The notes below the pieces were generated by a model, which had not been told where the DNA came from, searched no databases, and worked only from the letters and a program-made list of their open reading frames with translations. Source: a virus (Duplodnaviria > Heunggongvirae > Uroviricota > Caudoviricetes). From it: a stretch of 64,000 nt of DNA. Position numbers and translations under genes: made by a program. Positions 1-25,788 of the stretch are shown here, piece after piece. Every line of letters begins with the position of its first letter. The first letter of the stretch is position 1. The stretch is taken from the IMG/VR virus record IMGVR_UViG_2671180724_000008. One strand, written 5' to 3'.

Positions 1-2
1 AC

Positions 3-311
3 CCGAACGCACACCTGCATATTCCATCATGGTACACCGGCGATAACGACATTCTCGACCAGAACTACCGAAACGAAGGATTGGTACGGCTTGCACCCGG
101 AACAGAGCCTCAACGTGGGGACATCTTCTTTATCCAATACGGGAAAATGCCTGACCACTGCGCGGTTTATATCGGTGATGGAATGATTCTTCATCACCAG
201 ATCGACCGCCTTAGTTGTCGTGCTTATTACGGCGGGATGTATCAGAAACATACGACGCATCACTTGCGTCACAAAGACTTGCTCAAGGGAGATGAGACGT
301 GTCTGAGTTAG
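3..311 (+). CDS. tail assembly protein K-like (NlpC/P60-type peptidase domain), 5' end lies outside window
   Basis: Frame is open from the window edge to the stop at 311. Cys/His motif HCAVYIGDGMILHH. Position immediately upstream of I-like and J-like genes. Confidence 0.55.
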   Translation, partial: PNAHLHIPSWYTGDNDILDQNYRNEGLVRLAPGTEPQRGDIFFIQYGKMPDHCAVYIGDGMILHHQIDRLSCRAYYGGMYQKHTTHHLRHKDLLKGDETCLS

Positions 312-889
312 TTCATGTGCAGCTTGGCGGCCCTATGGCCAAACATTTTGGCCGCCACTGGCATCTAAAGGTGCGCAATACAAAACAGGCTCTGGATTTA
401 ATTGAGGCCAACAAGCCTGGGTTTAAAGCATGGATGAAGCGCAATATCAAAACCTATGACAGATACCACATCCAGATCACCAATAAACAGGGCCACAAGT
501 GGTCTGTGGACGAGAGTGAATATCAGATGATGGGGCAGTCTGACAATATTGCAAAAATCCGCATTACCCCTGTTCCGCGAGGAAGTGGTGGATCTGCTTT
601 TGGATGGTTTCAGACGGTTGTTGGAGCAGTATTAATGGTTGCCTCGATATGGGTGCCCGCTCTTGCGCCTCTCGGTTTGTCACTGATGATGGGCGGTATA
701 GCGCAAATCATATCTCCGCAAGCCACTAACGAAAGTGTGAGGCAGGCGGATAACTCGAACTCTTATTACTTTGATGGACCTCAAAACACAACAAACCAGG
801 GGAACCCTGTACAGCTTATCTATGGCGAGGAAATTTTAGTTGGCTCACAGGTCGTGAGTTCTTCTATCACCATCGACCAGCTTATGTAA
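299..889 (+). CDS. tail assembly protein I-like
   Basis: 196-aa ORF overlapping the K-like stop and directly preceding the J-like gene. Hydrophobic C-terminal segment as in lambda gpI-type proteins. Confidence 0.5.
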   Translation: MSELVHVQLGGPMAKHFGRHWHLKVRNTKQALDLIEANKPGFKAWMKRNIKTYDRYHIQITNKQGHKWSVDESEYQMMGQSDNIAKIRITPVPRGSGGSAFGWFQTVVGAVLMVASIWVPALAPLGLSLMMGGIAQIISPQATNESVRQADNSNSYYFDGPQNTTNQGNPVQLIYGEEILVGSQVVSSSITIDQLM

Positions 890-900
890 TCAAGGATTTT

Positions 901-3900
901 TTGGACATGGAACAGTTCAAGAAGAAAAAATTACCGCTTCTTATTGCCGGTGCTGGTGGCAAGAAAAGTAAAAGCTCCAGCCGTACACCGGTTGAAGCTG
1001 ATGATACTGTCAATTCTCGTGCTATGGCAGCCATCCTCGACCTTCTTGGCGAGGGGGTTATCGGTGGCCTGGTAAATGGCGCAAAGTCGATCTTCATCGA
1101 CGATTTACCGATCTTGAATGAAGATGGCTCTTCCAACTTCAGCGGTATTACATGGGATTTTCGTGACGGCTCACAAGACCAGACGCCAATGGCTGGTTTT
1201 GATTTTGTTGAAACGCCTAAGTCCGTAAATATTCAGCTTAAAAAAACACACGACGTTACGGTTTCAATCGATAACGATGAAGCTGATCGCGTTCGTGTCA
1301 TCATGAAATTCCCCTCTTTACGTAGCGTTGATAAAAGCTCTGGCGATACAAATGGCACTACGGTGAAGTACAAATTCCAGATCGCCAACGGAGACGCAAC
1401 ATTTTCTGATGTAGTGGCAGAAGGTGAGAAAAGCGTTGATATCACGCTAACGGCAAAGAAAACCGGCGTGTATTACCGTAGCTATGAGCTGAAACTGCCT
1501 AAGCCTGGTCGTGCATACAAGGTTAGGGTAATTCGTCTTACAGATGATAACAGTAGCCAGTACCTCTACAACGACACATGGGTTGATTCCATAGGTGAGA
1601 TTGTAGATACACCCATGAACTACCCTAATTCTGCACTTGTTGGCTTAAAGGTCAATTCAGAGCAGTTTGGTAGCACAATGCCTTCCCGTTCGTATTTGGT
1701 GCGCGGTATCAAAATTCGAGTACCGTCAAACTACAACGAATACACCAATACTTATGTCGGCGTATGGGACGGTACTTTTAAGCTGTTGTCTTCTTCAAAC
1801 CCTGCGTGGATTCTCTACGATTTGCTTACCAATACTCGGTATGGTCTTGGGCAATTTGTGTCGGAATCCATGATTGACCTCGGCCAGCTCTACCAGATTG
1901 GTCGATATTGTGACGAAGAGGTCGATGATGGCTTTGGGGGTAAAGAGAAACGCTTTGCAATCAATACGCAGATCACTAGTCGACAAGACGCATACCGATT
2001 AATTCAGGATATTGCCGGTGCATTCCGCGGCATGGTGTTTTGGGCTGGTGGCATGGTTAACATCATGCAGGATAGCCCATCAGATCCGGTAATGATGTTT
2101 ACCAACTCCAACGTCAAAGATGGGCTGTTTACCTATAAAGGTTCTGCGCGTAAAGATCGCCCATCCGTTGCGCTCGTAACCTACAACAACAAGGAGGACG
2201 GTTATAAGCAAAACATCGAGTACGTTGAAGATCAGGACGCAATGCGCCGTTATGGTGAGCGTAAAACAGAAGTCGTAGCATTTGGATGTACAAGCCGAGG
2301 CCAGGCTCACCGAGTTGGTTTGTGGCTTTTGTATACCGCCAGAATGGAGTCGGATGTAATTACATTTACTGCCGGCTTAGACGCCTCATTTCTGATGCCC
2401 GGTGAAACCGTTCTGATTCAGAACAAATATCGTGCAGGTAAACGTAACTCCGGTCGAATTGTGGAGTTTACCAAAAACAGCATCACTCTCGATGCGCCTG
2501 TGTCGTTAGCTAAAAGCGGCAGCTTTATTCGGATATTGAATCAGGAAGGCAAAATCGTTGAACGCGATGTTCTTGAAACTGGCGAAAACATAACAAAGGT
2601 TACGTTTTCAAAAGCCCTGTCGTCAGCGGAAACGCCTGTTTTGAACGGTGTCTGGACAATTACAGAACCAGATCTCGAACCTATGCGCGTTCGCATCGTT
2701 AACATCGCGCAGGGGGAAACGCCGGGTAGCTTTGACATCACCGCTGTTGAGAACAATCCGTCTAAATATGAGGCAATCGACAATGGTGCAACGCTTATCC
2801 CGCAGAATACGACGGTATTGGACCCGACTTACTCCAAGCCATCTAATTTGCAAATCACTGAAGGGACTTATCTCTCAAGCCCGGGAAACCTGTCAGTAAA
2901 ACTGACTGCAACATGGGAAGGGAAATCTCCAGAGTATTGGATCAGTTGGCGACGTTCTGATGAAAACAATGTATCGAACTGGCAATCGGCGCGTGTAACC
3001 GAAGAGCAATACGAAATCGTTAATGTCGCGGAGAATGGACGCTACGACTTCCAACTGTATGCGGTTTCATTCAACGGTAAAAAAACAGAAATTATCAGTA
3101 CCGTTTATCAGGTGCTGGGCACAATGACACCGCCGGATGCACCAACGTCATTAACGGCCGTTGGAGACTATCGTAATGTGATACTAAATTGGGTTAATCC
3201 AGATTCGGTAGACCTTGATCACATTAATGTTTACGCATCCCAGACCAACAATCTGGATACGGCGAAACTGATCGCGGAGTCTGCAAGCACCACCTTTACA
3301 CATGCTGGTCTTGGGGATAGTGAAACGTGGTATTACTGGGTTCGAGCATCGAACAAGCGCGGCATGTTAAGTCCTCCGAACTCAAACTTGGGTACAGAGG
3401 CGACAACTCGCGATGTACTGTCGTTCCTGGAAGGTAAGATTACATCGTCTGAGCTTGGTCAGGCTCTGCTTGAGGACATCCACAGCAAAGCCTCTCAAGA
3501 AGCAGTTGACGAGTTAAATGAGCATATCAACCAGAGCGTCGAATCTTTGGAGGGGGCGGTAAACGACGTTAAGGAAGATATAGCTGAATTAGATAAGCAG
3601 TTCAGCGATAACCTCGCGGATTTTGAAATAAAATTCAACGAGCGTAGCGATGCTTTGGAGAACGCACAAACCGAGCTTAAAGGTGAGGTTTCGGCAACGA
3701 TCGACAAGGTCAATGAAGCGTTTGAAAAAATTGGTGCTACTGATGCTGCAATTGTTGAAATCGAAAACACCGTATCTGAACACGATAAAGCTCTCGCTAA
3801 TACAGTCGAGGCAATAAAGGCTGCAAGAGATGAAGCAGCAGCTCTTATTGCTAAGGAAAGCGAGGCTCGTGTTGAAGGCGATGCTGCAAACGCTAAACAA

Positions 3901-16348: not shown

Positions 16349-17689
16349 ATGACCGAACTTTGCCATACAGGACGCGGGCTGTCCGAAGAGTTTGATGAAG
16401 ATTTCCAGAACAGACTGACGGCATATTTTTGTCGTGATCACGAGTTTCTTACTCGTGCGGGAGATCTGGTTGTGCCTAGCCAATTTGCCAATGCGGCCAA
16501 TGCCATATTGGTTAATATGGTTTCGGGCTATTACCGTATGTACAAGAGCGCGCCCTCTTCATCTGCAATTCTGGATATGCTTAAGCGTGCGAAACGCGAT
16601 AAGACTATCCGTGAGGAACTATTCGCCGATGTTGTTGCTGCGTTTAAGCGCATCCTTGCAGAAAAATTGTCCGATACCTCGTACATGGTTGACCAGGTAT
16701 CAACCTTCGCAAAAAGCGTAGCGTTTGATGATGCTCTGATTAAGGCTGCTGAACTGAAAGAGAAGGGCGACTTTCAGGGGGCGATGGCAATCATGGCCAA
16801 GGTTCAGCAGATTGGATCGAATGAAGCGACCGGAATCTATGACTACTACACCTCCGCAAGTGAGCGATTGAAAGCGCGTGAATATGAGGCTTCAGAGGAG
16901 TATGTACCAAACAGTATTACAACTGGACTCCCTCTTCTCGATAGGTTGCTGTACCAAAAAGGCTGGGCAAAGCGCGAAATGGTGCTCTTCATGGGGTTCG
17001 CTAAATCCGGTAAATCGACCGCAATGGGTGAGTTTTCCATAAACGCAACGCTTGCCGGCTACAATGTTCTGTATCTCTCGCTGGAGGTTCACACCAACAT
17101 TTTGTCCGACCGCTTTGATGCAAGATTGTCGGAGACGGAAATGTCCAAGCTGGTGGAACGGCGCGATGAAGTTCATCGTAAGTTGGCAGAGTTGGGAGCC
17201 ACGAAGGGGATTGGTAGTTTGTGGGTTGTTGAGCGTCCGTCAGGAAGTATGTCACCGGCCGATCTGGACCGTATGCTTAACAGTATGAAAGCCAATGGCA
17301 TGGTGCCTGACATGGTTGTTGTCGACTACGCAGATTTGATGCGTGCCAGTTATGACCTTCGTGATGATCGCGCCAATATTCGTAGTATCTACACCGATTT
17401 ACGTGCTCTTTATGACAAACATAACGTTGCTGGGATCACGGCATCGCAGACAAACCGTGAAGGTGGCGCGTCAGAAGTTGCCACAATGATGCACGCTGCC
17501 GACAACATCGAAAAAGTACGTATTGCTGACCTGGTAATAACGATCAACAAAACCGAAGAAGAAGAAGCGAAAGGAGAGGCTCGTCTCTACTTTGCTGGTT
17601 CGCGTAACCAGCAGGGAGGGATCAGCATTCGCGTTAAACAAAACCTCGAACAAATGCGCTTCATTGAGCGAATCTTAGACGTTACCTAA
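16349..17689 (+). CDS. DnaB-like replicative DNA helicase
   Basis: 446-aa protein with Walker A GFAKSGKST in a RecA-like C-terminal domain. Start preceded by aaaggaaagcacATG. Confidence 0.75.
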   Translation: MTELCHTGRGLSEEFDEDFQNRLTAYFCRDHEFLTRAGDLVVPSQFANAANAILVNMVSGYYRMYKSAPSSSAILDMLKRAKRDKTIREELFADVVAAFKRILAEKLSDTSYMVDQVSTFAKSVAFDDALIKAAELKEKGDFQGAMAIMAKVQQIGSNEATGIYDYYTSASERLKAREYEASEEYVPNSITTGLPLLDRLLYQKGWAKREMVLFMGFAKSGKSTAMGEFSINATLAGYNVLYLSLEVHTNILSDRFDARLSETEMSKLVERRDEVHRKLAELGATKGIGSLWVVERPSGSMSPADLDRMLNSMKANGMVPDMVVVDYADLMRASYDLRDDRANIRSIYTDLRALYDKHNVAGITASQTNREGGASEVATMMHAADNIEKVRIADLVITINKTEEEEAKGEARLYFAGSRNQQGGISIRVKQNLEQMRFIERILDVT

Positions 17690-17770
17690 AAAATAAGCGT
17701 GGAGAACACCTCCACGCTTGATTCATTGGTGAAACAACTTTTCTTTTGCCAAACCACAAAAGAAAAACAC

Positions 17771-18952
17771 ATGAGCCTTTATGTTATATCAACATTTAGG
17801 TTGGTCACAATATTGCCTGTTAAAAGTGGAATTATCGTGAGCGAGCTGAAAGAGCTAATTACCGAATTAGATTTTGAACAATGGTTGGACACTGAAGGTA
17901 TCGTTTATCGACGTGGAGGTGTGAGTGCTCGCGGTCGTGAAGTGAATATCAAGGAGTGTCCGGTATGCGGCAGCTCCAACTGGAAGGTATATTTCAATCT
18001 GACCAGTGGCGTCGGCAAATGCTTCGCTGGTGATCATCCCGAAGAGATTCAGTTCAATAAGCTGGTCTTCCTCAAGCACTACAGCGGTAAATCACGACGA
18101 CAGTTCGAGGAATATGTGCAGAACGCTCTTCTTTCCCAGGGGTGGGCACCAAAGAAAGAAGAGATAGTGCTTGCAAGCACAGTCGAGTTAGAGGGACCAC
18201 TTGCACTCCCTCGTCATTACGAGCTTCCTATAGATGGCCGTCTTCCAGACTATCTGGTTGAACGAAACATATCACCTGAAATGGCAAAGTATTTTGACCT
18301 ACGATACTGCGTCGAAGGCAAGCACGCTTATGTAGATCCGTATACAGATCAGGTAAAAGGACAGATATTCGATATGCGAGTACTGATACCGGTTTACGAT
18401 CTGGATGGGGTAATGAAGACATTTCAGGGACGAGACATTACCGGTACAGCAGACCGCCGCTACCTCTTTCCTATGCAGCTTCCAGCTTCAGGTAAGTTTC
18501 TCTACAACGGCCATAATGCGGTCGGCAAACAGACTGTAGTTGTCTGTGAGGGGGCGTTCGATGTTATGGGGGTTAAACGAGCTATTTTTGATGAAGAAAC
18601 ATTACGTGATTACGTGGAACCGATAGGAACGTTCGGGATGCATCTATCTGGTAACACCACTCAGGATGCAGAAGATCAGTTAGGCGCGTTCCTGACGCTC
18701 AAGGCGCGTGGGTTACGTAATGTGATCATGATGTGGGATAGTGAAAAGCAAGCTATACGCAACACTATGGCCGCAGCCAGGCGACTGACCAGTATCGGTC
18801 TTAATGTCAAAGTTGCGTGTTTGGGTGAGGAAGGACTCGACCCAGGCGGTGCAACGCCAGAACAAATTATCAAAGCCTATTATCGGGCAAAACCGTATAC
18901 CAAACAGTTGGAGTTGCAAAGCAAGGTTTTGGGCATTAAGGCTCTATCGTAA
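17771..18952 (+). CDS. DNA primase (zinc-ribbon plus TOPRIM)
   Basis: Zinc ribbon CPVCGSSNWKVY...GKCF and TOPRIM-like VVVCEGAFDVMG. Start chosen at the internal ATG preceded by ccacaaaagaaaaacacATG (conserved start context); the ORF track offers an earlier start at 17699. Confidence 0.65.
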   Translation: MSLYVISTFRLVTILPVKSGIIVSELKELITELDFEQWLDTEGIVYRRGGVSARGREVNIKECPVCGSSNWKVYFNLTSGVGKCFAGDHPEEIQFNKLVFLKHYSGKSRRQFEEYVQNALLSQGWAPKKEEIVLASTVELEGPLALPRHYELPIDGRLPDYLVERNISPEMAKYFDLRYCVEGKHAYVDPYTDQVKGQIFDMRVLIPVYDLDGVMKTFQGRDITGTADRRYLFPMQLPASGKFLYNGHNAVGKQTVVVCEGAFDVMGVKRAIFDEETLRDYVEPIGTFGMHLSGNTTQDAEDQLGAFLTLKARGLRNVIMMWDSEKQAIRNTMAAARRLTSIGLNVKVACLGEEGLDPGGATPEQIIKAYYRAKPYTKQLELQSKVLGIKALS

Positions 18953-19027
18953 CAAACGCCGTTAAAATAAGTAGATGATTACTTATCTTTCTGTAAGAAT
19001 ACTTTCATCTGTTAGCTAGGAGTTGGT

Positions 19028-19810
19028 ATGAAAGACGAAATTCAGAAATTAGCCTGCGACATCATTGATAAAACTGGTTTAGAAATCAGCGAGAGCAATC
19101 GACTAGACATCATTGAAAAAGCGGTAAAAACAGCAATGGATCATATCGCCACTCGTTTGGTTGAGATCCCGCTACCAGGGCTACCTTATCTGAAGGTTGA
19201 GTTACACGTATGGGGTGAACCTTCTTGTGCACGGCGTTCTGCATTAGTTGTTTTTATTAGCAAAGAAAACCCGCTCAGTCTTAAAGTGCAGGTTGGTGCA
19301 TGGATGGATGGAAAAGTGATCTACACAAATACCGTTTTTTGTGCGCCAAACGACAGTATTATTGAAGAGGCTATTCAGGAATCACTTCTAACTATGCATA
19401 GCTTAGTTTTGCTGGAAGACAAGCAAAACTACGAAGAGTACTTACGGTCGATAAAAGGTGAGAGAACATTGTCACTTAAAGCCGATTTTGTTACCCCGAC
19501 AAACCTGTTGGAAGTCTTGCTTAATAAAGGGGCTAATGATGCCGTAAATGTAATCAGAGAGAGTGAGTATGCGTCTCTTTGCGACATGTGCAAAAGCCAG
19601 TTGGATCTGGTGCATATCGTTATTGATGCTGGGAAGGCATGTGATGGCGTAATGGCGGAATTTGCTGGGAAGATGGTCAGGATTGCTAACGAATTACCGA
19701 TGATAGAGCAAGAGGCTAAATCATACGCCACCAATCATGTCACAGAGCTTCTTGTCCCCTATCGCTTAGAAAGCAATCAGCGCAAGATGGTTAGCTGGGG
19801 AAGTTGGTAA
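19028..19810 (+). CDS. hypothetical protein
   Basis: 260-aa ORF with RBS aggag upstream. Confidence 0.45.
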   Translation: MKDEIQKLACDIIDKTGLEISESNRLDIIEKAVKTAMDHIATRLVEIPLPGLPYLKVELHVWGEPSCARRSALVVFISKENPLSLKVQVGAWMDGKVIYTNTVFCAPNDSIIEEAIQESLLTMHSLVLLEDKQNYEEYLRSIKGERTLSLKADFVTPTNLLEVLLNKGANDAVNVIRESEYASLCDMCKSQLDLVHIVIDAGKACDGVMAEFAGKMVRIANELPMIEQEAKSYATNHVTELLVPYRLESNQRKMVSWGSW

Positions 19811-19865
19811 TCTCTCCGCGCGTCGTTTTTTACGCAAATAACGATAGGTAAGTACAAGATTATTT

Positions 19866-20348
19866 ATGGCGGTAGTTGTGAAAGCTGATTTGTCAAAAAT
19901 CCCCTCTATTTCAGGAAATAATGGTTATTCACTTCGTTGTGAGGAAGTAAAGATAAACGGTGAGTCGGCATATTGCAGCTACTCCGTTTGCCAGCACACC
20001 ATTCTTGCCTTCAAAGAAAACCGTCTTCCTCGAACTTCATTCCAGTCGTGCGCAACCACTATCAAAGCAGGCAAATGCAAGGCGTTAAAAATGATGGTTG
20101 AAGAGATTCGTAAAGGAGAATCTCTGTATTTCGAAGATATGACCGCGCTCATTAAGGAGGTTGAAGAACGGAATAAACAAGCCAGAACTATAAAACGAAA
20201 ACGTGACAGTGTAACGATTAATAGCATGGTTAAGAAGAGCACCACATCACAAACAGCGATCACTGACGTGTATGCGGCGTTGCTTGAAGAAACAACAAAA
20301 GAAACACATGAGCAAATCGATCAACATATGGAGGCAAAACAACAATGA
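19866..20348 (+). CDS. hypothetical protein (Cys-rich N-terminus)
   Basis: 160-aa ORF; several Cys in the first 70 aa (possible metal-binding). Confidence 0.4.
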   Translation: MAVVVKADLSKIPSISGNNGYSLRCEEVKINGESAYCSYSVCQHTILAFKENRLPRTSFQSCATTIKAGKCKALKMMVEEIRKGESLYFEDMTALIKEVEERNKQARTIKRKRDSVTINSMVKKSTTSQTAITDVYAALLEETTKETHEQIDQHMEAKQQ

Positions 20349-21667
20349 AAAAGTTGATCGCACTTAAGCATAAGCTGGACGAAATGAAAGCTATGGGAAC
20401 CAATGCAAAAAAAGAGGCATTGGCCAACATGGATGACTTCGAGCAAAGCATGGTTTCATTGATGCTCAACCCTTTCATCCGTTTTGGGGTAAAGAAATAC
20501 AAAGTGGCAGAGCCGCTTAGTGAGTCCGTCCCAAGTGACGAAAAAGCCATTGATATACTGAATAAGCTGGCCTCTCGCGAGCTGACGGGGAACGCAGCAA
20601 TAGCTGCTGTTGAGTCTATCGTGGCGTCAATGTGCGCCGATGGGCAGGACGTGTTCCGTCGTTTCCTCTTAAAAGATCCGAAAGCTGGCGTTGGGATTAG
20701 CCTATGCAACAAGGTTTTTGAAAATCCCATTCCGAAATTCGAGGTGCAGCTGGCGTCACCGTATAAAGAAAAAGGCGACAAATACCCCTTCAAGCCAAAT
20801 CCTAAAGCAAAATGGCCGATGATTGGCAGCCTTAAGCTCGATGGTTTGCGAGTAATTTGCGAGGTTATTGTTGACGAGGAAGAGGTGAACTTCCTTTCTC
20901 GTACTGGTAATCCAATCACGTCTCTCGATCACCTAAAGCCAGCCATGCTCGAATTAGGCAAACTTTCAGGCCACAAACACATCTTCTTCGATGGTGAAGG
21001 AACAGCCGGTTCATTTAACAAGTCCGTATCTGCATTGCGCAAAAAGAACGTGCAGGCAATTGGCGCTATTTATCATGTTTTCGACTTCTTCCTACCGGAA
21101 TGGCGGGCACAGGCTAAATCCAAAGAGTATGCAAAGACAGGTATGAAGCTGAAAGAGCGCCTGGCTATTCTCGTGGCGTTGTTCAAAAACGATCGCAGTG
21201 AAGACTACGCGCAAGACATTCACCTACATCCGTTCTACATCATCCATAGCCACGAAGACTTCATCGAACGCTTCATGAAACGCCTGGACGATAACGAAGA
21301 AGGGGAGATGGGCAAAGATCCGAACTCTGTTTACGAGTTTAAACGTACCCGCAGCTGGTGGAAGTTAAAAGACGAAGATTCAGAAGATGGTGAAATTATC
21401 GACTTTGAGCCGGGCGACCCGGACTCTGGTTTTGCCAACACACTTGGAAAAATTGTTATTCGTCTTGAAAACGGCGTCATCGTTCGTGCGAGCGGCATTA
21501 AGCATAAATATCTGGACGAGATCTGGAACAACAAAGAGAAGTACCGTGGTCGTATTGTCGAGGTTCATTGTCACGAGAAAACACCGGACGGCAGCTTACG
21601 CCACCCACGACTGAAATGGCCGCGTTGCTTACGCGATACAGAAGATCGAATCGGAGATAAAGAATGA
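20345..21667 (+). CDS. ATP-dependent DNA ligase
   Basis: 440-aa ORF with nucleotidyltransferase motif I KLDGLR (GSLKLDGLRV). Confidence 0.65.
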   Translation: MKKLIALKHKLDEMKAMGTNAKKEALANMDDFEQSMVSLMLNPFIRFGVKKYKVAEPLSESVPSDEKAIDILNKLASRELTGNAAIAAVESIVASMCADGQDVFRRFLLKDPKAGVGISLCNKVFENPIPKFEVQLASPYKEKGDKYPFKPNPKAKWPMIGSLKLDGLRVICEVIVDEEEVNFLSRTGNPITSLDHLKPAMLELGKLSGHKHIFFDGEGTAGSFNKSVSALRKKNVQAIGAIYHVFDFFLPEWRAQAKSKEYAKTGMKLKERLAILVALFKNDRSEDYAQDIHLHPFYIIHSHEDFIERFMKRLDDNEEGEMGKDPNSVYEFKRTRSWWKLKDEDSEDGEIIDFEPGDPDSGFANTLGKIVIRLENGVIVRASGIKHKYLDEIWNNKEKYRGRIVEVHCHEKTPDGSLRHPRLKWPRCLRDTEDRIGDKE

Positions 21668-21843
21668 TGCTCGGCTGGATGATTGCATTTTTAGCGGTTG
21701 GTTTTTTAATCGGTATTGTGGTGATGTCCAGTTGCATCAATGACTACATTAAAAGCGGTGTTATAGAACGACGCGGTCGTATTTATCGCATTGTAGAAAT
21801 AACCCACACAGTGAAGGAGATTAAGGATGATCGTATTAAGTAA
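21664..21843 (+). CDS. small membrane protein (paralog A)
   Basis: 59-aa ORF, absent from the ORF track (under 60 aa). ATGA overlap with the ligase stop. One TM helix and a conserved C-terminal GRIYRIVEITH motif shared with the ORF at 22039. Confidence 0.35.
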   Translation: MMLGWMIAFLAVGFLIGIVVMSSCINDYIKSGVIERRGRIYRIVEITHTVKEIKDDRIK

Positions 21844-22042
21844 GCGGGAGAAGGAAACGCTTCATGAAATCAGTAAGTGGCCGGAGTTCCCTGAGTACTG
21901 GAAGCCTAAAACGCGGGCTAAGTTAGAGCGGTTAGGGTTGGTTGCAAACGTTTCTGAAACGTGGTGTTCGGCCAACTACCAGTTAACTGATAAAGGGAAA
22001 GTATTGCTACAGCAATTAGTAGAATCAGGAGCGTTCAAATGA
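21827..22042 (+). CDS. hypothetical protein
   Basis: 71-aa ORF overlapping the preceding small ORF. Confidence 0.35.
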   Translation: MIVLSKREKETLHEISKWPEFPEYWKPKTRAKLERLGLVANVSETWCSANYQLTDKGKVLLQQLVESGAFK

Positions 22043-22191
22043 TTCCATACATCTCATTAGCTTTTATGGGTGGCTTCCTTATTGGCTTCGGCATCTGTCG
22101 TGATTTAATTAAGCAGGAACTTAAAACCAAAACACTGTGCATCGGAAAGCGTGTGTATCGGGTAGTTCATGAAACAAAGGTGAAAAAATGA
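22039..22191 (+). CDS. small membrane protein (paralog B)
   Basis: 50-aa ORF, ATGA overlap with the preceding stop. One TM helix and a C-terminal KRVYRVVHETK motif paralogous to the ORF at 21664. Confidence 0.35.
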   Translation: MIPYISLAFMGGFLIGFGICRDLIKQELKTKTLCIGKRVYRVVHETKVKK

Positions 22192-22478
22192 GCAATTTAA
22201 CTTCTTGGGAATGGTGGTTGGCCACCTATTTCTTAGCGGCCGGAGTCGCATTCGCCTTTTACGTAGGTCAGTTAGTCGTAAAACTGTTGCTGATTAAATT
22301 TGCTAGTCATAAACGTATCGATGATGGTCTGTGGCGTCTTGGCACCCTGGTGGAAACTCGCTACGGGCAACTTAAGGAGAACGAAACCATTACTATCCAA
22401 GCGAAACGATTCACTGCCACCATCACAAGAACACCTAGTCGTAGAGTGGCATTGATCAAAAAAGTCACAACCGAATAA
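22188..22478 (+). CDS. hypothetical membrane protein
   Basis: 96-aa ORF with an N-terminal TM helix; ATGA overlap with the preceding ORF. Confidence 0.35.
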   Translation: MSNLTSWEWWLATYFLAAGVAFAFYVGQLVVKLLLIKFASHKRIDDGLWRLGTLVETRYGQLKENETITIQAKRFTATITRTPSRRVALIKKVTTE

Positions 22479-23256
22479 AAACATATTGATAAGTATTTAC
22501 TTACTTATCTTTTGTGTATAAGATGACTTTGTTTTCGTTGAGACGCGACTGTTTGAACTTAAATACAAGTGCAAACGAAGAAGTCTATCTGGCAGTAGCC
22601 TAATAAGCCAAACACCAGCGAGGTCAGTTTCCAGCCTCGTTACCGAAATGGGACACACTGAGCGAGTGTGATTGCAGAACGCAGGAGGGAACATTCATGT
22701 TCCCTCCGATGAAGTAACAGAATGGGCGGTTGGTATATTTTCAACTCCATATGACTCCCGGATTCTTAGCCACTGACCGCCCATCCTGTTACGTCATTTT
22801 GTTCAATTATGTCGTTTATACTGGGTTAAAAAGCGGCGACGTAGCCCGGCTGGTATGGTTAGCCAGCACACAACGTTGAGGCCATTACATTTTTATCAAT
22901 TCTAAGGTTCTATTCACAGAGATACCGGCGAGCGTTGATATGTAACATGTTGGGCAAACATTCAATCGGAGTAGTGGCCTCAACGTTGTGAAGACGGGAT
23001 TGTTGTGTAGGTTTAACCACTGTTGCCATTGGTGCCTGTTTTCACAACAAATGATTCCATACATCACATTGTATAAATTACAAAGTAGGTGCTGTCCTCA
23101 GAAACATCATCTACTTAAAGATTTTGCCTTCTACTATTGAGCGAAGTCGAAAGCGTCTGGCACTAACGAAAAGTGCAAGTAGCGGTGCGTTTCCTGGCAG
23201 AAACTAAACCGTCGCGATTGGCACTGTTGAGTAATAAATACTGGCAGTGCTGAATT

Positions 23257-23331
23257 GATGGTGTAGCTCAGCGGTAGAGCAGTTGGCTGTTAACCAACTG
23301 GTCGGTGGTTCGAATCCACCCACCATCGCCA
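23257..23331 (+). tRNA. tRNA-Asn (anticodon GTT)
   Basis: Canonical cloverleaf read by eye: acceptor gatggtg / caccatc, D-arm gctcagcggtagagc, anticodon loop ctGTTaa, T-arm ggtggttcgaatccacc, encoded CCA. Confidence 0.8.
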
Positions 23332-23336
23332 ATTTA

Positions 23337-23423
23337 GGGGAGTTAGTCCGTAGAGGTAGCGGTGTAGACTGTAAATCTACTGTCATTGCGACTCGGGTGG
23401 TTCGACTCCATCACTCCCCACCA
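23337..23423 (+). tRNA. tRNA-Tyr (anticodon GTA), type II with long variable arm
   Basis: Acceptor ggggagt / actcccc, anticodon stem-loop gtaga-ctGTAaa-tctac, long variable arm, T-loop ttcgact, encoded CCA. Confidence 0.7.
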
Positions 23424-23427
23424 AATT

Positions 23428-23503
23428 GCCGGTTTAGCTCAGTTGGTAGAGCGCCTGCCTTGTAAGCAGGATGTCAGCGGTTCGTGTCCGTTAACCGGCA
23501 CCA
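23428..23503 (+). tRNA. tRNA-Thr (anticodon TGT)
   Basis: Acceptor gccggtt / aaccggc, D-arm gctcagttggtagagc, anticodon loop ctTGTaa, T-loop ttcgtgt, encoded CCA. Confidence 0.75.
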
Positions 23504-24171
23504 ACATAATATTGAGAACATTGGCGTAACGGGGTCATATCCCAATCTATGAATAAATGTTACGTTGCCGCGTGACAACCAGTGTTCTCAACATTGTGGT
23601 GAATGCACAGGCTGATGTGCCGCAACTACAGTAGTGCGCGCTTTGCGGGGCTTGCTACAACCCTGTGTCGGAGATCAGCGCCGACCATCACAATTTGGCT
23701 CTCTTGCAACAGCATAACGCTGAAATATGTCCAACCTGGTGCGGCCTGTTCACCCGCCGTTAGCTCCACGAAACGGAGCGCACAACAGATAAGAGAACTT
23801 CCCATATGGGGCTTGGCTTAAATGCATCGAGTTCTCTTATCGCTGTGTCACAGACAAATTTCCGACAGCCCTGTTTATCATCGGACGCAACCTAAAAGGT
23901 CGAGGCAAAGCCAGGTAATAGCGGAGGGAGTGACACAGCACACAACAGGTAAGAGCATTTGTAGAGTTCGACTCTCTACCGTGGGCTTTTTCCCGCGATG
24001 CGAGCCATAAATGCTCTTTCCGTTGTGGTGGATTCGCAGACTGATGCGATAGCTTTCTTGGATGTTAGGGAAATGCGGCCGCAAATCTTCCCTTTCGCGA
24101 GCGGTGATCGTCCGTAGTCCTAATTGGCTGCACCGTATGCCGGAGATTCAGTACCGGCCACCACAACGGCC

Positions 24172-24258
24172 GGAGAGTAGGGAGCATGGTGCTCAAGCGG
24201 TCTTGAAAACCGTCCCATTGTGCAAACGATGATGGTTCGATTCCATTACTCTCCGCCA
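24172..24258 (+). tRNA. tRNA-Ser-like (anticodon TGA), type II, non-canonical D-arm
   Basis: Acceptor ggagagt / actctcc, anticodon stem-loop gcggt-ctTGAaa-accgt, long variable arm, T-loop ttcgatt, encoded CCA. The D-arm is irregular, so function is uncertain. Confidence 0.5.
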
Positions 24259-24260
24259 GA

Positions 24261-24338
24261 CACAGCGTTGAGCGGTTTGGCCTTTTAATCAACTCGATTA
24301 AGACTCCGCTAACATAAACCAGACCGCTCAACGCTGTG
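24261..24338. repeat. long imperfect inverted repeat immediately after the tRNA cluster
   Basis: 20-bp arms (19/20 match): cacagcgttgagcggtttgg and ccagaccgctcaacgctgtg, separated by a 42-nt loop. Confidence 0.6.
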
Positions 24339-24370
24339 ATAGACAATTACGGCAGACGTTCTTAACCATA

Positions 24371-24400
24371 GCTTGCTAACATCCTAGCAACACTTTTTTT
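24371..24400 (+). terminator. rho-independent terminator after tRNA region
   Basis: ttgcta-acatcc-tagcaa hairpin followed by cacttttttt. Confidence 0.5.
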
Positions 24401-24413
24401 CAGCGCAAAATTC

Positions 24414-24436
24414 AAAGGGGCTTCGGCCCCTTTTTT
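24414..24436. terminator. bidirectional rho-independent terminator
   Basis: aaaggggc-ttcg-gcccctttttt, with an A-run upstream and T-run downstream. Lies just past the 3' end of the minus-strand gene 24454..25788. Confidence 0.75.
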
Positions 24437-24453
24437 GAAAGCAATGGGCAAGT

Positions 24454-25788
24454 TCATGCCAAATTATCCAGATTTCTTTTCTTTTTTTCAATTATATTTC
24501 TCGCGCCAGAAAAAATTTTACTCAAAATAATTGATTTGCTTGCTCTATTATTAAGATGTAACAACGCGCTATAAAATACATAGTTATCTATTTTACTATT
24601 TAAAGTATTCCCAAGCTTCCCGTTATATGTGCTATTAATAGTATTAAAATATACATGTTCAGGACCTATATTACAAATACCCCTATCAACTCGCTTTAAA
24701 TAATGTTTAACTAAAGAAATAGCATCTTCCTTATCATTAATAACATAAAGTCCTGAGCGTTTACCTAGCTTGCTGTCCGAGAATAATTTATAACCAACAA
24801 GTTCATTTAACGTATTATCCACTTTTGTCAACTCTTTGTTGGCAATCTCCAAATAATACTCAATCTCTTTCTCCATATTACTTATTAAAGAGTTAAATTC
24901 TGCTCGTAACAAATCACCACCAGGTGATTTATAACTCCATAAAATTGAATTGGTAATACGTACTACGTCAGATACTTCTGGTTTCTCTGAATAGTTTTTG
25001 TATCTAGTGCAAATAATGCTGTGCTTTATATATTCTCTAACTAATGATCGATAATCCCTTTCGAAAAGGTTTTTGACATCTAGTCTTCCATTGCTTGTTG
25101 TTATTAAGGTGGTGTTTAAAACTGGGTCGCCTTCAAAAAAATTATATTTATTTAGTAATCGTTTTAGCTTGTGTGAATTATGTGATGTTTCGCCATAATA
25201 ATTTATCCCAAAAATAGCAATTATTAGCATAACATCAGGAGTGATGAAATGTCGTAATTGCTCGGCATAAACTTTTTTATCTTCGATTTTCGAAGATGGA
25301 GAGTAAAAACCTTTGTCTATATATTCTAATATTGAAACAATATTACTAACATAACGTATAAAAACTTGATTCATTACAACGGAATCATAAACCTGATGCA
25401 AATAATCTACTCTCAAGTTGTTTTTTATTTTTTCCCCTGTACTAGATGATAACTCTTCTTTTACCTGCCCAAGTAGCTTTTCGTGGTGCTCCAGCAATGT
25501 TTTAAACCATTGTTCAAATGATGATTTTCTTGCCTCAGTTAATGAATCTGATGTTATCTGGACAGCTTTCATAGCTGCTTTCGCACTTTTCTTTGCTTCA
25601 TAAGCGTTCCATGCTGAAGCACAAAAAGCTGCCGCCGTGATGCAACTGGTAAAAATAGAAATCCTATCTGCAACATTCAAGCTCCAGAACCAATCAGACG
25701 ATGAAATCAAAACCACAGATATTACGGGAACAATGAAAATCAAAACAGGCATGTATGTACTCGCTCTAATAGTTATTAGTCGAGGCAA
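24454..25788 (-). CDS. low-GC membrane protein of unknown function (candidate accessory / defence or exclusion gene)
   Basis: 444-aa minus-strand ORF in a markedly AT-rich segment. Two predicted N-terminal TM helices, then a largely helical soluble region with no nucleotide-binding or nuclease motif recognisable by eye. Own terminator at 24414..24436. Confidence 0.5.
   Translation of the reverse strand: MPRLITIRASTYMPVLIFIVPVISVVLISSSDWFWSLNVADRISIFTSCITAAAFCASAWNAYEAKKSAKAAMKAVQITSDSLTEARKSSFEQWFKTLLEHHEKLLGQVKEELSSSTGEKIKNNLRVDYLHQVYDSVVMNQVFIRYVSNIVSILEYIDKGFYSPSSKIEDKKVYAEQLRHFITPDVMLIIAIFGINYYGETSHNSHKLKRLLNKYNFFEGDPVLNTTLITTSNGRLDVKNLFERDYRSLVREYIKHSIICTRYKNYSEKPEVSDVVRITNSILWSYKSPGGDLLRAEFNSLISNMEKEIEYYLEIANKELTKVDNTLNELVGYKLFSDSKLGKRSGLYVINDKEDAISLVKHYLKRVDRGICNIGPEHVYFNTINSTYNGKLGNTLNSKIDNYVFYSALLHLNNRASKSIILSKIFSGARNIIEKKKRNLDNLA

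Follow-up and report, generated by a model that had tools for sequence, protein, structure and literature searches.

AcrZ, MgrB and MgtS are bacterial proteins of 30-60 residues, with short tails and a single transmembrane (TM) helix, that exert their effect by binding to larger membrane proteins. Small membrane-anchored proteins are also encoded together with replication genes in the Bacillus phage phi29, where p16.7 and p1 have basic cytoplasmic parts. Here, we describe a locus of four small genes, named A to D, that lies directly behind a DNA ligase gene in a 64,000-nt stretch of viral DNA (IMG/VR record IMGVR_UViG_2671180724_000008; this whole stretch is called the window). Genes A and C are predicted to encode related single-pass membrane proteins, which together with their relatives are called X-type proteins, and gene D is predicted to encode a further small membrane protein. 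On balance, and with moderate confidence, we regard A, C and D as a small inner-membrane module (N-terminus outside, C-terminus inside; N-out/C-in) that would be made together with the replication genes during lytic growth. With the same confidence the predicted module is not taken to be a plasmid addiction system.

The locus resembles the described systems in general layout, and it is distinct from each of them. The X-type proteins are similar to AcrZ, MgrB and MgtS in size and in having one TM helix, and they carry a small-xxx-small motif. However, no sequence relation exists, and the X-type proteins are encoded by phage-plasmids, where their genes belong to a replication operon of the lytic cycle and a second membrane protein accompanies them. 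With p16.7 and p1 of phi29, X and D share the nature of small membrane proteins with basic cytoplasmic parts (predicted for X and D) encoded beside replication genes. In this case, no homology was detected, the tails of X and D are much shorter and contain no recognised DNA-binding or coiled-coil domain, and host clade and phage type differ. The Hok/Gef type I toxins are, like A and C, single-TM peptides of about 50 amino acids (aa) on enterobacterial plasmids and prophages. In contrast to them, A and C gave no match to the Pfam Hok/Gef models at E<=1, lack a positive N-terminus and a conserved Cys, are silent in the plasmid state, and are situated within a coding operon instead of being stand-alone, antisense-controlled genes. 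Lastly, 3 of 16 X-type proteins matched UPF0154 (PF03672), a family of small membrane proteins of Firmicutes, weakly over the TM segment and the juxtamembrane basic stretch (best E=4.8e-4). Protein C of the window reached 13.1 bits against a cut-off of 27.1 bits, its match leaves out the R-x-Y-R-x-V motif, and UPF0154 itself has no known function.

Because of its matches to the Escherichia phage Cyrano, Salmonella phage SSU5, pHCM2, pMT1 and related plasmids, the window is classified by sequence as an SSU5/pHCM2-type phage-plasmid of E. coli. It is 97-99% identical to Cyrano and to plasmids of E. albertii or E. coli, and in the region 20300-22600 the identity is 97.8-98.0% to Cyrano (the pLF82 phage-plasmid) and 79% to SSU5. 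A 901-nt query across the A-D locus retrieved 752 PLSDB plasmids from Klebsiella, Escherichia, Enterobacter, Salmonella (pHCM2), Yersinia (pMT1), Citrobacter and Cronobacter. It was also found in 234 of 5426 complete E. coli genomes, every time on a plasmid. The order A-B-C-D is common to SSU5, pHCM2, pMT1, pJN2-26 and Cyrano. The four genes correspond to SSU5_045-048 (A is SSU5_045 and C is SSU5_047) and had already been annotated as hypothetical proteins; the RefSeq accessions of the A-D proteins are not mentioned in any paper. SSU5/pHCM2-type phage-plasmids are common in clinical Enterobacterales, the A-D locus being present in more than 650 PLSDB plasmids, among them pMT1 of Y. pestis and pHCM2 of S. 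Typhi. Hardly any work has been devoted to the small genes of these phage-plasmids, and A, C and D are a clear target set for work on the lytic biology of these elements. The present results clarify an uncharacterised family of small proteins and overturn nothing known.

The original prediction had proposed two overlooked open reading frames (ORFs) of fewer than 60 aa, and both were recovered at the same coordinates (genes A and C in Table 1). Reading of the coordinates also bore out that each of them overlaps the stop codon of the preceding gene as ATGA and the start of the following gene. An ATGA is shared by the ligase stop and the A start (21664-21667), by the B stop and the C start (22039-22042), and by the C stop and the D start (22188-22191), and B starts 17 nt upstream of the A stop. 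A Shine-Dalgarno (SD)-like GGAG, AGGAG or AGGTG is located 6-8 nt ahead of every gene from A to D. Thus, the chain of overlapping small genes stood, and the translational coupling that had been claimed for it is predicted from the overlaps. In SSU5, pHCM2, pMT1 and a Cronobacter plasmid, the first codon of A is replaced by CTG, so that only the second ATG (21667) is conserved as the start of A.

The frames of A and C are open in orthologs across genera, and the remaining two frames contain 1-9 stop codons. With five orthologs from other genera, the ratio of nonsynonymous to synonymous substitutions (dN/dS) was 0.10-0.19 for A and 0.14-0.44 for C. The numbers of variable columns at the first, second and third codon positions were 30/12/44 for A and 21/13/35 for C. 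Because dN/dS is low, variation is concentrated at third positions and the other frames are ridden with stops, A and C are judged to be real coding genes under purifying selection.

Several independent comparisons addressed the relationship of A and C. BLASTP aligned the two proteins with E=1e-5. When the sequences were shuffled with the compositions of TM segment and tail kept apart, the real score had z=5.9 and was reached by 0.04% of the shuffles. Alignments of the A and C orthologs were matched by hhalign with a probability of 85% (E=6e-6) over 48 columns without gaps. A search of all 1462 six-frame ORFs of the window with hidden Markov models (HMMs) of A and C picked the other gene second in each case (E=0.005 and 0.0035), while the following hits had E values of 0.5-1.2; further paralogs of A and C were not found among these ORFs in the 64-kb window. 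In the divergent IMG/VR lineage L087, A' and C' are 37% identical over 46 ungapped residues (E=2e-7). As a control for a likeness that stems from the TM segment only, the D family was compared with the A or C families, and the hhalign probability was 1-2%. Together with the bridging relatives described below, these comparisons mark A and C as true paralogs, as the original prediction had stated. Two further relationships were rejected. The similarity of B and D, which a duplication of entire gene pairs would entail, did not exceed that of shuffled sequences (z=0.0). D looks similar to A and C by eye, with a TM segment and a hairpin, and as a third paralog it failed in BLASTP (no match), in shuffling (z<=0.5) and in the hhalign comparison just mentioned.

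A and C are represented by two separate groups in the PHROGs collection, PHROG 4381 and PHROG 6302, which like PHROG 4507 (D) and PHROG 4054 (B) are labelled 'unknown function'. The single-copy X protein of lineage L096 matched both phrog_6302 (1e-8) and phrog_4381 (6e-8), and the same was true of C' of lineage L098 (1e-15 and 1e-6, respectively). Because these bridging members match both profiles, PHROG 4381 and PHROG 6302 are one family, designated the X family, a connection that appears to be new. When 1.84 billion representative proteins were searched exhaustively with a profile HMM, only 22 clusters emerged, and the clusters that were inspected belong to the X family, save one weak match to a repeat protein (P0125, E=1.3e-4). 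As far as the profiles reach, the X family is confined to the SSU5-type phage-plasmid clade. Aligned without gaps, all family members share G12, R38 and Y40, and R41, V43 and T46 are nearly invariant. The original prediction had described a C-terminal motif G(R/K)(I/V)YR(I/V)V(E/H)(I/E)T. A motif is indeed shared by A and C, but not in this exact form, as A reads GRIYRIVEIT and C reads GKRVYRVVHET, which does not fit it as written. The Cys that had been noted after the TM helix was not upheld as a common feature. The Cys residues of A and C occupy different alignment columns, and the deeper relatives lack them; the Cys in 'MSSC' of A is R or S in some orthologs and is missing from A'.

Next, gene order was compared among five lineages, i.e., L096, L100, L098, L087 and the SSU5 type, which includes the window. 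The order is ligase-X-D in L096 and L100, ligase-A'-C'-D' in L098, which lacks B, ligase-A'-B-C'-D' in L087, and ligase-A-B-C-D in the SSU5 type. In addition, E. coli pYPE3-114k (L004) has ligase-B-C-D without A. In 5 of 5 lineages, the first small gene is of X type, lies directly behind the ligase gene and overlaps its stop codon. In all five, the overlap of an X- or C-type gene with the D-type gene measures 4-14 nt, and in the window B and C lie between A and D. Identity of the single-copy X proteins is 36-46% to C compared with 13-27% to A, and they were placed in the C clade of a neighbour-joining tree. Because the deeper lineages show ligase-X-D and their X falls into the C clade, the comparison revealed an ancestral module of one C-type gene that overlaps a D-type gene, directly behind an overlapping ligase gene. 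From the orders ligase-X-D, ligase-A'-C'-D' and ligase-B-C-D, it follows that the C-type gene and D are the conserved pair and that the adjacency of A and B is secondary. Hence, the conserved unit is X-D, and not A-B and C-D, which also appears to be new. The original prediction of duplicated modules was therefore only half right. The small TM gene was duplicated; the whole pairs were not, as B and D are unrelated and A became adjacent to B secondarily. Similarly, conservation of the pairs in relatives applies to C-type/D, which was kept in five lineages, and not to A-B, a pairing that is not fixed.

The additional copy has a more recent history. A is a later tandem copy of the C-type gene that was often lost again, and its nature as a repeat-bounded duplicate appears not to have been described before. 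It is flanked by a 16-nt direct repeat, the copies of which share 14 of 16 nucleotides and lie at a spacing of 163 nt. In the alleles without A, on pYPE3-114k and on a Buttiauxella plasmid (L015), one repeat copy is present and exactly the intervening 163 nt are gone. Gene B is absent from L096, L098 and L100, and the gene orders place its insertion between the two copies after the duplication that gave rise to A, in some lineages. In a census of PLSDB by tblastn (all plasmids, with those of Escherichia in brackets), the ligase was found in 759 plasmids (220), A in 532 (139 of the 220), B in 637 (220), C in 682 (218 of the 220) and D in 653 (218). A is absent from about 37% of the Escherichia relatives, and its distribution marks it as a dispensable copy.

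One TM helix had been predicted for both A and C, and both proteins indeed contain a hydrophobic stretch of 19 residues with mean Kyte-Doolittle values of 2.60 (A) and 1.84 (C). In A, it comprises residues 6-24, is preceded by no lysine or arginine (K/R) and is followed by a net positive tail. The same pattern was observed in 14 X-type and 8 D-type sequences, in which K/R are absent N-terminal of the TM segment, except for one K/R in X of L100, and the tails are net positive, except for the net-zero tail of A of a Klebsiella plasmid. The net tail charge is +3 to +8 for C-type and D-type proteins and 0 to +3 for A-type proteins. Because K/R are lacking before the TM segment and the tails are net positive, the positive-inside rule leads us to infer that X-type and D-type proteins insert N-out/C-in. 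The TM segments of the X family contain a small-xxx-small motif with the invariant G12 and with G, A or S at position 16. Small-xxx-small motifs commonly serve helix-helix packing. Searches of Pfam, NCBIfam and PADLOC gave no match for A, C and D. A lipoprotein, i.e., a Cor-type exclusion protein or an o-spanin, was considered and rejected, as K/R are missing before the hydrophobic stretch, the Cys of A is not conserved and C has no lipobox.

The relatives of D were recognised by their position and profile. The positional orthologs of D in L087, L098, L096 and L100 each had phrog_4507 as the top match (E=0.044 to 8e-15) with a collinear alignment. An AlphaFold2 (AF2) model of D had a mean predicted local distance difference test (pLDDT) value of 60 and was confident in the TM helix only. 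Many RefSeq and GenBank records call D 'C-type natriuretic protein', a name that found no support in any profile library searched (Pfam, NCBIfam). Because no model in these libraries backs it, the name looks like a propagated misnomer. Gene B matched HTH_45 in 9 of 9 orthologs, in all cases below the Pfam cut-off (best E=0.0012), and further weak matches were to the C-terminal winged helix of Csa3 (E=0.0015) and to the wing of PDB 2f2e (E=0.36). B is probably a minimal winged helix. Profile searches of the PDB with B and D yielded chance-level matches only.

Transcript levels in the plasmid state are available from RNA sequencing (RNA-seq) of a Cyrano lysogen in the LF82 study (PMC9928086, S1 Table). 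The genes CYRAN_36-39 (ligase, B, C and D) had 5-8 normalised reads, which equals the level of structural genes and is near the floor value of 4.99. In the same study, the toxin-antitoxin (TA) genes KacT, RelE and HicAB were 9-60 fold above background, the range for the TA genes together with other morons was 6-723 fold, and ciprofloxacin induced Cyrano 39-fold (PMC9928086). Because ligase, B, C and D are at background, and ligase and B overlap A on its two sides, the A-D cluster is silent in the plasmid (lysogenic) state, which for A is deduced from both of its neighbours.

From these results, the following course of events is proposed. After induction, translational coupling would keep the output of X-type and D-type proteins in a fixed ratio to that of the replication proteins. 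Working at the inner membrane in lytic growth, X-type and D-type proteins would form a small complex, in which the TM helices may pack through the G12...G/A/S16 small-xxx-small motif and the short basic tails, with the invariant R38 and Y40 and the nearly invariant R41, would face the cytoplasm. By analogy with bacterial small membrane proteins, the likeliest job would be to bind and modulate a membrane partner of the host or of the phage.

Several observations weigh against this proposal. In L013 from Klebsiella and in L099, C-D was kept and ligase, A and B were lost, and therefore the role of C-D is not strictly tied to the ligase. In L011, L012 and L014 from Klebsiella, C is truncated and fused to other sequence and D is replaced; such frequent rearrangement of the cluster in Klebsiella plasmids argues for a dispensable accessory role. 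A is unannotated in Cyrano, so that its RNA level was deduced from overlapping neighbours at background level. RNA-seq of an induced SSU5-type element was not found in the literature, and therefore lytic expression is deduced from the operon position only. The AF2 model of A, built from the merged family alignment, is one long helix with a pLDDT of 82-90 in the TM segment and of about 59 in the tail. Lastly, translation, membrane insertion and the interaction of X and D are all predicted.

A more far-reaching version of the proposed membrane module is tentative. It would make the X-D pair and the extra copy A an unrecognised two-component inner-membrane module that is specific to SSU5-type phage-plasmids and is produced in step with the replisome. 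If this is true, the module would either attach lytic replication to the membrane or put a host membrane function out of action, and phage small membrane effectors with a defined TM packing motif and the cytoplasmic signature R-x-Y-R-x-V would have to be recognised as a new family.

We hypothesized that the proteins might alternatively serve in exclusion or host takeover, which is possible but unlikely in this specific form. They are then predicted to block a host inner-membrane transporter, a DNA-entry route or a division protein and thereby to protect the infected cell from other phages or to halt host functions in lytic growth. The size, the single TM helix and the small-xxx-small motif are, as is generally known, typical of proteins that bind larger membrane proteins, and the cluster shows the variability and repeated remodelling that are usual for accessory or arms-race genes. 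However, PADLOC gave no match, and the genes are silent in the lysogen, so that this would not be a classical prophage-encoded exclusion. A membrane-targeting lytic role, as implied by the 'host takeover' of the original prediction, fits the context.

Quite unlikely is a function as membrane organiser, in which the basic tails of X and D would, by analogy with phi29, hold phage-plasmid DNA under replication, or the replisome, at the inner membrane. In all lineages, the genes stand at the end of the helicase-primase-ligase operon and overlap with its ligase gene, the tails carry the net positive charges given above, and a small winged-helix-like B lies inside the cluster in some lineages. In contrast, the tails have only about 30-55 residues, a DNA-binding domain was not detected in the profile searches, and C-D was kept in plasmids without the ligase. 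Furthermore, no link to p16.7 or p1 exists in sequence or fold, and the AF2 models are too poor for a fold comparison.

The original prediction had been reminded of toxin-antitoxin modules, in which A and C would be membrane toxins that are neutralised by the downstream B or D, and this is disfavoured. A small hydrophobic protein with an overlapping small gene superficially resembles a TA pair, and among the loci examined A was lost and B was kept in L004 and L015, and an intact A never occurred without B. However, B and D are unrelated, D itself is a membrane protein, and the pairing is not fixed, as L098 has A' next to C' and lacks B, X is accompanied by D only in L096 and L100, and B occurs without A in L004 and L015. 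Pfam (including Hok/Gef), NCBIfam and PADLOC gave no match, apart from the weak winged-helix matches of B, and the orientation predicted from the charges is opposite to that of Hok. The genes are at background in lysogens, compared with 9-60 fold above background for real TA genes (PMC9928086). In sum, a TA function is very improbable.

Even less credence can be given to the idea that X and D are holin- or antiholin-like regulators that set the timing of lysis. D had a weak match to the holin phrog_2359 (E=0.027) in the TM region only, and 1 of 16 X-type proteins weakly matched Phage_holin_5_2 (PF16079, E=0.048). These holin matches are below any threshold and limited to the TM segment, and a complete holin-endolysin-Rz-Rz1 cassette (CYRAN_22-25) is located separately, about 10 kb upstream of A-D, whereas X and D are part of the replication operon. 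Finally, that A and C are untranslated chance ORFs or misannotations, alike through hydrophobic composition alone, has next to no probability, because in spite of their shortness and of the missing annotation of A in Cyrano and of C in several RefSeq plasmids, this is effectively refuted by purifying selection, third-position variation and open frames, by the failure of the TM control D compared with A-C, and by a conserved motif outside the TM segment.

The features of the region are compiled in Table 1. The ligase gene is the last enzyme gene of a helicase-primase-ligase replication operon, and in Cyrano the chain likewise comes after helicase and primase. A consensus scan of the plus strand from 17000 to 24600 detected no promoter-like site, and the number of terminator-like sites in the same scan was not above the expectation from shuffled sequences.

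Table 1. Features of the gene chain and its surroundings in the window
Feature	Position	Strand	Remarks
160-aa ORF	19866-20348	+	first in local chain
ATP-dependent DNA ligase gene	20345-21667	+	Pfam DNA_ligase_A_M, E=4e-13; named DNA ligase in Cyrano, SSU5 and pJN2-26
Left 16-nt direct repeat, GGAGATAAAGAATGAT	21653-21668	+	spans SD and start of A
Gene A, predicted single-pass membrane protein, 59 aa (58 aa from ATG 21667)	21664-21843	+	phrog_4381, E=8e-39, residues 1-59/59
Right 16-nt direct repeat, GGAGATTAAGGATGAT	21816-21831	+	spans SD and start of B, within 3' end of A
Gene B, 71-aa soluble protein, winged-helix-like	21827-22042	+	phrog_4054, E=4e-46
Gene C, predicted single-pass membrane protein, 50 aa	22039-22191	+	phrog_6302, E=1e-36, residues 1-50/50
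Gene D, predicted single-pass membrane protein, 96 aa, basic tail predicted cytoplasmic	22188-22478	+	phrog_4507, E=2e-58
Stretch without long ORF, about 780 nt	directly 3' of D	n/a	ORF listing
tRNA-Asn, tRNA-Tyr, tRNA-Thr	23257-23503	+	downstream end of chain

The A-D cluster is a hot spot of rearrangement. On Buttiauxella p1WJP83 (L015), positions 2775-2948 hold an in-frame chimera of the N-terminus of C (MIPYI...) and the TM and juxtamembrane part of D (..QFIVKMFFVKFASHKRI). A second in-frame chimera, at positions 2238-2453 of K. pneumoniae pKPN1402_2 (L011), joins the N-terminus of C to unrelated sequence, and in the Klebsiella type a 138-aa ORF with a C-terminal TM segment is found in place of D. 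In Y. pestis pMT1 (L005, NZ_CP045155.1, positions 1-3900), A-B-C-D is intact and the ligase is truncated, with residues 93-440 alone being aligned by tblastn and istB of IS100 located just upstream. In this plasmid, the gene for the F1 capsule operon regulator, caf1R, begins about 500 nt past D and occupies the place of the conserved RNA and tRNAs seen in other elements.

The non-coding stretch after D (about 700 nt, 22496 to ~23250) surpassed the flanking genes in conservation across genera. By eye, a conserved promoter-like TTTACT-17 nt-TAAGAT was recognised at 22496-22524; it agrees with the consensus at 8 of 12 positions and is under the threshold of the scan from 17000 to 24600. It is followed at 22571-22606 by the frame GCA AAC GAA GAA GTC TAT CTG GCA GTA GCC TAA TAA, which reads ANEEVYLAVA and starts with a GCA resume codon and ends with two stops. 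These elements, i.e., a GCA resume codon, an SsrA-like tag with a hydrophobic end, and stops, are those of the mRNA-like domain of a transfer-messenger RNA (tmRNA). Over 89 loci, six SsrA-like tag variants are conserved as peptides (ANDNQYLAVA, ANEDTYLAVA, ANEDAYLAVA, ANDDVVLMAA and ANDTQYLAVA besides ANEEVYLAVA), and upstream of the GCA of the tag, frame-breaking indels occur among the loci. Matches of the tag part to the Rfam tmRNA models stayed below the gathering score of 47, with 22.7 bits for the window and 39 bits for L087. RNAalifold predicted 76 pairs, 21 of them with compensatory changes, and a hairpin (22684-22707) and an inverted repeat (22869-22883 / 22976-22990) were noted. A credible tRNA-like domain was not found; ARAGORN detected no tmRNA at the default or 90% thresholds, and at 80% it placed the tRNA-like parts inconsistently, within different coding genes. 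No paper linking tmRNA with SSU5, pHCM2 or phage-plasmids was found in the literature. Judged from these features, the RNA after D could either derive from a tmRNA or represent a phage-plasmid tmRNA that is divergent or made of two pieces.

The tRNA genes further downstream were also compared. CYRAN_40, a minus-strand ORF over tRNA-Thr and tRNA-Ser (L001 6082-6294; the equivalent in the window is the tRNA cluster 23257-23503), is listed as a 15-fold 'moron' (PMC9928086), and its read count may merely reflect transcription of the tRNAs. L096 (7810-7885) and L098 (5212-5286) each contain a tRNA with the anticodon CTA, which reads the amber stop codon; ARAGORN calls it 'tRNA-Pyl', and it may be a suppressor tRNA. 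The tRNA set varies among close relatives: the window has Asn, Tyr, Thr and Ser (differing from L001 at 23337-23423 and 24172-24258), Asn, Thr and Ser are closely clustered in Cyrano, and in SSU5 Asn alone is annotated.

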